Source of the DNA: Christensenellaceae bacterium
GTDB taxonomy: Bacteria; Bacillota; Clostridia; Christensenellales; Christensenellaceae
Direction: 5' to 3'
Length of the DNA stretch: 25,386 nt
NCBI GenBank assembly: GCA_045644225.1
Contig: JAZRGP010000465.1
Coordinates: 1 to 25,386 of the forward strand
Position numbers and translations under genes: made by a program. Below the pieces are notes generated by a model. It made no database searches and had not been told where the DNA came from. It worked only from the letters and a program-made list of their open reading frames with translations. This document shows, in pieces, positions 1,330 through 3,697 of the stretch; position 1 is the first letter of the stretch, and the number at the start of each line of letters is the position of its first letter.

Positions 1330-1968
1330 TTATGTGATCTTTAATAGATACGAATATTCATCAGGATATTTAATTTTACTCCAATCTGCTTTGGGGGATT
1401 TGTAAGTAAGTTCCTGATACTTTTCGTCCCTTATGTTTTTTCTGTAAGTCGCAATGATTTGAAGTTGATTTGATATGATATTTCTCATATCTTCTCTTAA
1501 AATAGTATTTGGAACATATTCCGAATCATCTTCGTTATACTGGAAACCCATACACATTTTAATGTTTCCGGCAAGTTTATCTGTTGTCAGTTTGGGTTTT
1601 AAAGAGTTATGGTCTCCAATCATTTTCGCTTGCAAATTTTTGCAGATTATATTGGGAAGTATCAAAAGTTTGAGCTGTGTGGTTCCATCTTCAGCAAACA
1701 TAAAATCTGCTTCACTAAGTTTATGGTTAAGACACTTTTGATAAAAATCATTTGCAAATAATTTTGCATTCGGATCATCCGCCGTATTTGCTTTTAATCC
1801 TGTTAAATGCATAAAATTATGTGCATGAAACGAAAACTCAAAAGCAAAAACTTTCTTGTGTTTGTCCGTGCATAGAAACAGTAACTTTTTACCATTTAAT
1901 TCTGTTTCATATTTATGAGCGCAATCTACAACGATTGAAATTGCCTCTTTTTTTGTTAAATTCCCCAT
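1330..1968 (-). CDS. PBECR4-domain protein (predicted Barnase/EndoU/ColicinE5-D/RelE-like RNase)
   Basis: Motifs recognised as PBECR4-like: KKEAISIVVDCAHKY, NFMHLTGL, FYQKCL, DGTTQLKL, LTTDKLAGN, YVPNTILREDMR. RBS AAAGGA. AT-rich relative to the backbone. Confidence 0.75.
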   Translation of the reverse strand: MGNLTKKEAISIVVDCAHKYETELNGKKLLFLCTDKHKKVFAFEFSFHAHNFMHLTGLKANTADDPNAKLFANDFYQKCLNHKLSEADFMFAEDGTTQLKLLILPNIICKNLQAKMIGDHNSLKPKLTTDKLAGNIKMCMGFQYNEDDSEYVPNTILREDMRNIISNQLQIIATYRKNIRDEKYQELTYKSPKADWSKIKYPDEYSYLLKIT

Positions 1969-1986
1969 TACACTTCGTCCTTTAGT

Positions 1987-2032
1987 AAAAAAGAGAAGAC
2001 TGCAACACCGCAGTGTTACTCGTCTTCTCTTT
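1987..2032 (-). terminator. Intrinsic terminator between the RNA leader and the PBECR4 start codon
   Basis: 11-bp stem AAAGAGAAGAC/GTCTTCTCTTT plus inner AACAC/GTGTT stem, ending in a U6 tract on the minus strand about 19 nt before the ATG. Confidence 0.8.
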
Positions 2033-2042
2033 GGTTGACTGG

Positions 2043-2149
2043 TTTTTCTGTCGTCCGCCGACGCTCAGTTCCATCTGGTCGAAAACCATTCTACTGCATC
2101 TATTTCGGATTTTTCTGTTGTCCGCCAACACCCCAGCCCAATGTCTGGT
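2043..2149 (-). repeat. Two imperfect direct repeats (37 and 40 nt) with a covarying hairpin and AGAAAAA tail
   Basis: RNA sense: ACCAGACAUUGGGCUGGGGUGUUGGCGGACAACAGAAAAA (2149-2110) and ACCAGAUGGAACUGAGCGUCGGCGGACGACAGAAAAA (2079-2043). Confidence 0.8.
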
Positions 2150-2208
2150 ATCAGTATCGGATTAAAGTGCCAGTCGCACTAGAGGAATGACGTCCTCTAT
2201 CCAATTTC

Positions 2209-2238
2209 ATTATATGCAAAACTAGCCTGCTATGTCAA
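2209..2238 (-). promoter_or_regulatory. SigA-type promoter driving the RNA repeat-PBECR4 unit
   Basis: Minus-strand TTGACA (2238-2233), 18-bp spacer, TATAAT (2214-2209). Both hexamers are perfect consensus. Confidence 0.75.
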
Positions 2239-2350: not shown

Positions 2351-3697
2351 ATGGCAACCACGCGAATATGGAAAGTTCAAAGTAATTTGCTCCGTGTTGT
2401 AAATTATGCAAAAGATGAAAACAAAACAGAAAATCCGAAATGGAATGAAGAGCAATATCAGGTTTTGCAGGATGTTATGGATTATGCTATGGATGATTAT
2501 AAGACCGAGAAACAATACTATGTTACGGCTCTTAACTGTAATGCAGATTATGCACGAACACAAATGCAGATGACGAAAAAACAATTTGAGAAAGAAGATA
2601 AGATCCTTGCATGGCACGGGTATCAGAGCTTTGCAGAAAATGAAGTGGATGCGGATACAGCGCATGACGTTGGTGTAAAACTTGCGCAACAACTATGGCC
2701 GGAATATCAGGTAATCGTTGCAACGCATCTCAACACAAAGTGTTTTCACAACCATTTTGTGCTAAACTCAGTCTCGTTTCTTGACGGGAAGAAGTTTAAC
2801 GCCTGCAAAGAAAGCTATCGTAAAATGCGAGCCGAATCGGATCGGTTGTGCAAAGAATATGGACTGTCCATTATAACAGAACACAAAGCATATTATCCGA
2901 AACATTATGCAGAATGGGATGCAGAGCAAAAGGGGCTGCCTACATGGCGCAGCGCAATTAGAGTGGATGTAGATGCAGCATTAAAAAGTTCTATGACATG
3001 GAGTGCTTTCCTTCACAATCTGCAAGCCCGAGGATATGAAATAAAATACGGGAAGCATATTGCAATACGCCCCCCGGGGAAAGAGCGATTTGTTCGGCTG
3101 AGATCTCTCGGGGAGAATTATACTGAGGAAAAGATTCGGGATAGAATCCTTGGGAAGAAATCAGTAAAATCATATCCAACCATCAATGAAAAAAAGATAT
3201 TATCTCTGAAATGGTCGGAAGATTTTCGCTTATCCAAGGTTACTTGGAAAGGATTGAGAGCATTATATTTCTTTTATTTACGCAAATTGCGTGAAGCCCA
3301 GAAGAATCCAGAAAGCGTGTCATACCTTATTCGGGATGATTTGCGAAGGTTAGATGAAATTAGTGAACAAACCATGTTTTTATTTAATAATAGAATTGAT
3401 AAGATGGAACAACTCCAAACATTAAAACATAGTTTGGAATCGCAAATATCAGCATTATCAACAAGGCAGAAAGAGTTTTATAAAGAAAAGCGACGCGGAG
3501 AAACTGCTGCTAATCAGAGAGAAATAATAATAACATTAAAAGGCATTTCGACTCAAATTAAAAGATTGCGGGATGATATAAAAATGTGTGAAAACATAGA
3601 ATCTTTCTCTACGCGCTTAAATAAAACATATAAAAAATTAAAAACAACTAATAAATGCATATCCGAAAATCAGCGTTCATCTCGAGCGCTTTTTTAA
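2351..3697 (+). CDS. MOB_P-family relaxase (relaxase/mobilization nuclease domain)
   Basis: N-terminal Tyr (VVNYAKD), AWHGYQSF motif, HLNTKCFHNH 3H motif, RBS GGAGG. Confidence 0.9.
   Translation: MATTRIWKVQSNLLRVVNYAKDENKTENPKWNEEQYQVLQDVMDYAMDDYKTEKQYYVTALNCNADYARTQMQMTKKQFEKEDKILAWHGYQSFAENEVDADTAHDVGVKLAQQLWPEYQVIVATHLNTKCFHNHFVLNSVSFLDGKKFNACKESYRKMRAESDRLCKEYGLSIITEHKAYYPKHYAEWDAEQKGLPTWRSAIRVDVDAALKSSMTWSAFLHNLQARGYEIKYGKHIAIRPPGKERFVRLRSLGENYTEEKIRDRILGKKSVKSYPTINEKKILSLKWSEDFRLSKVTWKGLRALYFFYLRKLREAQKNPESVSYLIRDDLRRLDEISEQTMFLFNNRIDKMEQLQTLKHSLESQISALSTRQKEFYKEKRRGETAANQREIIITLKGISTQIKRLRDDIKMCENIESFSTRLNKTYKKLKTTNKCISENQRSSRALF

Follow-up and report, generated by a model that had tools for sequence, protein, structure and literature searches.

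A double-pseudoknot RNA encoded upstream of PBECR4 genes as a candidate type III-like antitoxin

Our study concerns a 25,386-nt stretch of DNA from a Christensenellaceae bacterium (assembly GCA_045644225.1, contig JAZRGP010000465.1; hereafter the window), in which a gene for PBECR4, a predicted ribonuclease (RNase) of the BECR fold, is preceded on the minus strand by a structured RNA. The two repeat units of this RNA are the halves of a single pseudo-symmetric, closed, double-pseudoknot RNA. The order of promoter, repeat RNA, terminator and RNase gene, in which the original prediction, made from the window sequence, had recognized a type III-like layout, is kept in about 100 loci. We favor the reading that the two components form a type III-like toxin-antitoxin pair, the RNA being the antitoxin and the PBECR4 RNase the toxin, and put its probability at roughly 0.55. 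We do so because RNA and protein clade have diversified together, no protein partner is conserved, loss is asymmetric, repeats vary, the settings are mobile and rich in toxin-antitoxin genes, and the RCd22/AbiF system offers a precedent.

The leader spans about 215 nt on the minus strand, from about position 2202 to the U-run of the terminator, and no Pfam-bearing or conserved open reading frame was found in it. The elements of its fold are the following.

2198..2181, minus strand: P0, 5' hairpin AGAGGA/UCCUCU with loop CGUCAU; AU, GC, UA and CG types occur at every stem pair
2180..2034, minus strand: RNA core, the double pseudoknot, matching covariance model R1 with 126.7 bits (E = 3.7e-28)
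2175-2170/2042-2037, minus strand: P1, closing helix GACUGG/CCAGUC; 6 of 6 pairs changed on both sides, 97.1% of cells paired
2161-2158, minus strand: a1, a UCCG lying 3' of an A-rich run, partner of the unit-2 loop in the second pseudoknot (PK2)
2148..2133, minus strand: H1, hairpin CCAG/CUGG of unit 1; 4 of 4 pairs changed on both sides, 97.8% of cells paired
2129..2106, minus strand: unit-1 H-type pseudoknot, with stem GUUG/CAAC (2129-2126/2120-2117), loop GCGGA, A-run AGAAAAA (2116-2110) and UCCG (2109-2106)
2096..2066, minus strand: H2, hairpin CAGU/ACUG of unit 2, with an inserted inner hairpin UGGU/ACCA; outer pairs covary, 99.5% of cells paired
2062..2043, minus strand: unit 2, with stem GUCG/CGAC (2062-2059/2053-2050), loop GCGGA pairing with a1, and A-run AGAAAAA (2049-2043)

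Twenty-four leaders were aligned (alignment A3) and folded with RNAalifold, which returned, unguided, P0, P1, H1, the unit-1 pseudoknot, the unit-2 stem and the terminator, with compensatory changes in 35 of 40 pairs. The covariance model R1 was built afterwards, and its alignment comprises 104 matches (68 distinct sequences). Across these distinct sequences 98.6% of the cells of the nested structure are paired, and 17 of its 21 pairs are changed on both sides. Not one of 500 shuffles reached the observed percentage paired or the observed covariation score. When the 3' partners were shifted by one to three columns, pairing fell from 98.6% to 11-40%; this collapse places the structure signal far above chance. 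The lack of a conserved structure upstream of PBECR4 homologues had been named beforehand as a possible refutation of the original prediction, and what we found is a structure that is both conserved and covarying. The closing helix occurs in variants such as GGUUGA/UCAACC, GACCGG/CCGGUC and GAUUGA/UCAAUC, the P0 loop GCGWCAU is kept in most of the 24 aligned sequences, and the loops of H1 and H2 differ between loci.

The pseudoknot of unit 1 (PK1), in which the loop CGGA (2124-2121) pairs with UCCG (2109-2106), had been proposed from the window sequence and is now seen to be 99.3% paired, with covarying variants (CGGG/CCCG, CAGG/CCUG, CAAG/CUUG, CGAG/CUCG). It was chosen by RNAalifold itself, and double changes occur in 36 of its cells, where no shuffle exceeded 17. 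The closing helix P1 and the second pseudoknot had been missed. PK2 was found by pair counts and joins the unit-2 loop CGGA (2057-2054) to the UCCG at 2161-2158, upstream of unit 1; it is 99.2% paired over 68 rows (variants UCUG/CAGA, CUCG/CGAG, UUCG/CGAA, CUCA/UGAG). We also considered the swapped partners, a1 with the unit-1 loop and a2 with the unit-2 loop, and rejected them, because they are only 86% and 79% paired, against about 99% for those accepted. Most sequences have distinct tetranucleotides for the two knots, for example CAGG/CCUG together with CGGA/UCCG, which would prevent mispairing.

The two units had been described as related repeats, and their 20-nt cores in the window, 67 nt apart, are indeed identical at 18 of 20 positions; they do not form a plain tandem array, being interlocked in one closed fold. 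The spacing reflects the long form of H2 present in the window. An ACCAGA...CUG motif said to be shared by both units turned out to be non-homologous: in unit 1 it is H1, and in unit 2 the ACCAGA belongs to the extra hairpin inside the H2 loop. The compensatory swap from GUUG/CAAC to GUCG/CGAC recurs across homologues, the unit-2 stem being 100% paired with UA-to-CG changes in 12 of 66 distinct rows (UA 54, CG 12). Two other descriptions of the region were set aside. The minimum-free-energy fold of the single sequence gives a misleading long hairpin in the 5' half and was overruled by the comparative data. A 49-amino-acid open reading frame (2131-1982) was rejected as coding, since the spacing between units varies among relatives by non-multiples of three (50-53 in the short form, 64-69 in the long form) and the variation follows base pairs.

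The basic unit is a hairpin followed by GUUG-loop-CAAC-RGAAAAA-tail, and its arrangement varies in divergent sub-branches. Most common by a wide margin is the closed form with two units (156 clusters). Three loci have a single unit (L044, L050, L100), one has two free-standing tandem pseudoknots (L119), and another (L089:3925-4098) holds 3.2 or more copies of a 54-nt repeat (98% matches) in an array that the locus end truncates, with a terminator and a 309-amino-acid PBECR4 gene following. A further locus (L160) has a single unit beside an apparent tRNA gene.

Searches of Rfam 15 at E <= 10 with the regions 1200-2500 and 1975-2215 gave only noise, with no riboswitch, drum, skipping-rope or DUF3800 motif, so the leader matches no known riboswitch there, a check that the original prediction had called for. 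The RNA is a new class, absent from Rfam 15, and the system would be a variation on the type III idea. The RNA is also structurally notable in itself, as a compact pseudo-symmetric double pseudoknot whose knots use different co-varying sequences.

Is the RNA tied to PBECR4? We gathered 136 PBECR4 homologue proteins and collected 37 genome loci; the locus search worked from an 11-sequence alignment, and a 34-sequence alignment had no sufficiently conserved stretch. The leader persists in front of homologues whose protein identity is as low as about 35%, and L032, at 30%, has a divergent copy. A pattern scan for the RNA alone gave at least 120 metagenome loci and seven viral loci. Among the matches listed, to which what follows on RNA copies and their neighbors refers, PBECR4 lies directly downstream in 84 of 108 evaluable copies by hidden Markov model and in two more by Pfam (L084 and L089), making 86 of 108. 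The copies without PBECR4 are mostly full-length RNAs that lack any remnant of the gene. What comes after the RNA is either PBECR4 or, in decayed loci, nothing, the other neighbors having promoters of their own. Seen from the protein side, the RNA is present in 30 of the 31 evaluable clade members. No flanking protein family recurs in 20 loci, where the largest cluster accounts for 2 of 20. Of 70 distinct related loci, 42 have a promoter with at least 10 of 12 consensus positions whose end lies about 28 nt upstream of the RNA core, and 58 have a terminator hairpin of -12 kcal/mol or lower with a U-run; the terminator stems covary in 24 relatives. Genes for Doc, ParE, MazEF and Panacea occur beside relatives of the cassette. 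Some orphan RNAs are followed by Doc, Panacea or MazEF genes, and in L153 and L156 these followers have promoter-like sequences of their own.

Several orphan RNAs deserve a description. A common human-gut element (L134:6198-6799) carries two divergent full-length orphan RNAs about 320 nt apart and no PBECR4; an insertion sequence (IS) with an rve transposase occupies the expected site of one gene, with genes for Fic/Doc, ParE, a LexA-like repressor and a phage integrase nearby. The same type of element is present in L043, L045, L048, L057, L073, L088, L106, L115 and L121. Three viral contigs of IMG/VR (L162, L164, L165) have a full-length RNA without PBECR4: all that is left of the gene in two of them (L164, L165) is a few PBECR4-like start codons, and in L162 the RNA is followed by a Doc-family gene. 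It is conceivable that such phage-borne orphan RNAs act as decoy antidotes.

Loss is therefore asymmetric: orphan RNAs are common and orphan proteins rare. The sole orphan protein is that of Pseudoflavonifractor sp. MSJ-37 (L001), whose chromosomal PBECR4 gene (2501-3211) lies between NUDIX and PepSY genes, with no RNA upstream and no RNA match anywhere in the genome. This protein is the closest genome relative of the window PBECR4 (57% identity, sister on the tree), and it alone has Trp at Arg162, a position held by Arg in 104 of 111 homologues. It may be a disarmed and domesticated copy.

This asymmetry bears on the idea that the RNA is a working partner of PBECR4, serving a ribonucleoprotein as scaffold, specificity factor or activator, used for instance by the mobile element against RNA-based defenses of the host. 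PBECR domains have been suggested to be offensive RNases that phages and conjugative elements turn against host RNA-based defenses (PMC5512222), the window cassette lies among conjugation genes, and both the tight co-diversification of RNA class and protein clade and the sophisticated, highly conserved folds would suit a ribonucleoprotein. Yet frequent orphan RNAs, rare orphan proteins and a substituted conserved Arg in the sole orphan protein fit a protective RNA better than a cofactor, and tandem repeat expansion is typical of antitoxin arrays. We regard a working partnership as distinctly unlikely.

If the RNA is instead an antitoxin, the window would hold a self-contained two-part cassette on a conjugative element, made of the RNA and the following features.

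2238..2209, minus strand: sigma-70-type promoter TTGACA-N18-TATAAT, 12 of 12 consensus matches
2031..1987, minus strand: two-tier intrinsic terminator, with outer stem 2031-2022/2000-1991, inner stem 2018-2012/2009-2003, a UGCG (UNCG-type) loop and a U-run to 1987
1982-1978, minus strand: AAGGA ribosome-binding site, 5' of the PBECR4 ATG
1968..1330, minus strand: PBECR4 gene, 212 amino acids, predicted BECR-fold RNase (Pfam PF18813, E = 3.5e-30)
1308-1285, minus strand: second terminator, 3' of the PBECR4 gene, a 9-bp stem and a T-run

The perfect promoter and the leader of about 215 nt with a terminator shortly before the PBECR4 ATG had all been noted in the original prediction and were confirmed. 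The promoter, probably strong and constitutive, would drive a structured small RNA of about 215 nt, whose two units, each a hairpin and an H-type pseudoknot with an A-rich third loop, would be locked together by the terminal helix and the long-range second pseudoknot. It is the sole promoter available to the PBECR4 gene, as the 18 nt between the terminator and the ATG (1968) leave no room for a separate one, and most transcripts would end at the strong, stand-alone terminator. Read-through from the RNA promoter would thus be the only source of PBECR4 mRNA, and the RNA would therefore always be in excess of the enzyme. The terminator that follows the gene makes it monocistronic, with no protein partner in the unit. 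The RNA, as cognate partner, most likely binds PBECR4 and keeps the enzyme inactive; being pseudo-twofold, it could accommodate two copies of the protein. A failing supply of RNA would then let the module act in addiction or abortive infection. In this account we infer the toxicity, the direct binding, the neutralization, any processing of the RNA by PBECR4 and the part that the module plays biologically.

The same arrangement could be explained by an RNA acting only in cis, as a leader or attenuator that sets the level of PBECR4 mRNA, PBECR4 or a host factor binding it to affect termination or mRNA stability, with no neutralization. The RNA always precedes the gene, with which it shares strand and transcription unit, its terminator is only 18 nt from the ATG, its closed fold suggests an intact, unprocessed molecule, and RCd22 is known also to lower abiF expression transcriptionally (PMC12373285). 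Against this, we found no conserved alternative pairing between RNA core and terminator: an exhaustive helix scan of the 24-sequence alignment gave no conserved helix of at least 5 pairs between the core and the terminator arms that could serve as an antiterminator, and the terminator therefore looks constitutive. Orphan RNAs also outlast the gene and keep a promoter and terminator of their own, which a pure leader would not do, and the number of repeats ranges from one to at least three. Two metatranscriptomes with contigs over the RNA alone point weakly in the same direction. We consider a purely cis-acting role doubtful, if still worth keeping in mind.

These transcript data come from a rumen relative (L030), for which 24 rumen runs contained 6-26% of the sampled words; a look-up of RNA runs for the window itself gave none. 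Contigs over the RNA alone were obtained in two of four metatranscriptomes, and they hint, weakly, at an abundant, separate RNA. One of them (L030:2292-2436, run X7), 199 nt long with a depth of 7.4, ends precisely where the RNA core does on its 3' side, short of the terminator hairpin; this may be a processed 3' end or a mere assembly break.

The relation between PBECR4 and its RNA extends beyond the clade of the window. In a sample of 400 genomes of the class, drawn without regard to the RNA, there were 24 further PBECR4 loci, only five of them with the window-type RNA. The remaining loci have the same layout with different leaders. The drum RNA (RF02958) was found in 10 of the sampled loci at or above the gathering score; upstream of PBECR4 genes of the other clade it reached 65-91 bits, and 43 bits, the gathering score, in L184. 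We further distinguished a drum-like class C (L181, L189, L190), a class D with another large fold (L173, L175) and a class E (L183) with a pair of short direct repeats, each about 25 nt long, at a spacing of 34 nt. The leaders of these three classes are long, with promoter and terminator, and have no Rfam match or only a weak drum match. By eye, every RNA class has an A-rich element resembling GAAAA(C/U) a short way ahead of the terminator. The class of RNA tracks the clade of the protein, as the labels on the maximum-likelihood tree need seven changes, the minimum possible, and the drum-bearing PBECR4 proteins form one clade (support 96/93). Near one drum-PBECR4 cassette there is also an ordinary tetrahydrofolate (THF) riboswitch (L179:2916-3017, 87 bits), which is unrelated.

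This swapping of RNAs between related PBECR4 clades makes a ligand-sensing RNA unlikely. A riboswitch, in which a small-molecule aptamer and a terminator platform control PBECR4, would account for a complex pseudoknotted 5' leader fold followed by a terminator, and pseudo-symmetric tandem architectures do occur in some riboswitches. But a single gene family lies downstream, related PBECR4 genes have unrelated RNAs at the same place, there is neither an antiterminator nor an overlap with the terminator, unit number varies and no Rfam riboswitch matches. Weinberg et al. reasoned similarly for drum (PMC5737381). We think a riboswitch highly improbable.

A broader proposal is that PBECR4 and its upstream RNAs constitute a large unrecognized superfamily of modules that work as type III-like toxin-antitoxin systems or in abortive infection. 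The toxin would have the BECR fold, its cognate antitoxins would have been drawn from at least five unrelated RNA folds, and orphan RNAs on phages and beside IS elements would be antidote decoys. We advance this proposal tentatively, at somewhat short of an even chance. If it holds, it would assign a function to drum, an RNA that has been function-less since 2017.

The protein itself is a clear member of its family (PF18813, 106.2 bits against a cut-off of 27). Among 111 homologues K100 and P153 are invariant and H54, T56, G57 and T155 nearly so, and the conservation of H54 (109 of 111) and T155 (110 of 111) fits the active-site proposal of PMC5512222. An AlphaFold2 model has a predicted local distance difference test score (pLDDT) of 90.6 and a predicted template modeling score (pTM) of 0.86. 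As the original prediction supposed, PBECR4 is not known as a type III toxin family: in the literature we found essentially only the defining paper, which describes it as a predicted metal-independent RNase with a His and a C-terminal Thr/Ser, records stand-alone copies from phages and type IV secretion elements, and does not mention an RNA (Iyer et al. 2017, PMC5512222). A sequence search of the PDB gave no relative of the window PBECR4, and PHROGs one weak match only (E = 0.006).

Several observations weigh against a type III-like pair. We infer the toxicity of PBECR4 solely from its assignment to the BECR fold (Pfam; PMC5512222). A Foldseek search of the PDB gave a best E of 0.2, with nothing at E <= 0.001 and a faint resemblance to RelE only. 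PBECR4 is outside the superfamily of ToxN, AbiQ, CptN and TenpN, none of which appeared in the PDB profile search or among the 50 listed Foldseek matches, and PADLOC has no model for it. The covarying closing helix of the main class suggests that the unprocessed RNA is the functional form there, unlike the processed ToxI repeats, and the invariant A-runs may be structural, as third loops of H-type pseudoknots, rather than cleavage sites. The L030 contigs, with a depth of 2-7, no read ends and possible carry-over of DNA, are too shallow to inform on transcript ends or processing. Finally, the intact-looking L001 homologue persists without the RNA.

The genomic setting of the window cassette is that of a conjugative element, as shown by the relaxase, coupling protein and primase-like neighbors. 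The cassette is inverted relative to its flanks, with a NikA-like gene (928-1263, opposite strand) as the next gene beyond PBECR4 and a relaxase gene (2351-3697) on the other side; genes for a Toprim/DUF3991 primase-like protein, DUF3801 and a type IV coupling protein are nearby. NikA-like accessory genes and relaxase genes are often adjacent. The arrangement suggests that the PBECR4 cassette was inserted into the mobilization region. There is a perfect 11-nt inverted repeat between 2031-2041 (the RNA 3' end, CAGUCAACCAA) and 2270-2280, just upstream of the promoter in the relaxase-proximal intergenic region; its rough chance expectation is about 0.02.

If the favored reading is right, a BECR-fold toxin with an RNA repertoire of its own would be a further widespread type III lineage in gut and rumen Clostridia, carried by conjugative elements and prophages. 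Drum, a conserved orphan RNA of 2017, would gain a function open to testing, and the evolution of several RNA folds toward control of a single protein family would have a natural example.

Type III systems were long defined by three ToxN-like families (ToxIN, CptIN and TenpIN), to which AvcID, with a deaminase toxin, and the type III-like AbiF/RCd22 were later added. The window cassette resembles ToxIN/AbiQ, CptIN and TenpIN in joining a promoter, a pseudoknotted repeat RNA, an intrinsic terminator and an endoribonuclease gene in one unit, in that RNA would exceed protein, in its variable repeat number and in its occurrence on mobile elements and prophages. Its RNA has tandem direct repeats, though interlocked ones, and its two-unit pseudo-twofold form recalls the CptIN heterotetramer that Rao et al. 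reportedly described in 2015. It differs in its candidate toxin, which Pfam assigns to the BECR fold and which matches ToxN-type toxins neither in sequence nor in fold, and in that the units of the main class are not free repeats, being joined by a covarying closing helix and a long-range pseudoknot.

Drum (RF02958) occupies the same position, in the same layout, before the PBECR4 genes of a sister clade, with a promoter and a terminator of its own, the latter preceded by an A-rich GAAAGAAAA element. It has another sequence and fold and lacks repeat units, and the window RNA has no match to the drum model at E <= 10. According to Weinberg et al. 2017 (PMC5737381), drum has a terminator, is improbable as a riboswitch and is compellingly associated with a protein nearby. 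The DUF3800-I to -XI motifs of the same study, for which no specific functional hypothesis was obvious to its authors, involve another protein family than PBECR4 and present the same picture of one family with many unrelated RNAs, several of them with 3' terminators. An experimental precedent for function is AbiF/RCd22 of Clostridioides difficile. The AbiF toxin is Abi_2/HEPN-like, not BECR, and its RNA motif is unrelated to ours; as in the window, a non-coding RNA with two copies of a conserved motif lies upstream of a toxin gene, there on a prophage. RCd22 neutralizes AbiF by direct binding (Saunier et al. 2025, PMC12373285), so that a protein-associated RNA motif of 2017 has already been shown to be a type III-like antitoxin.

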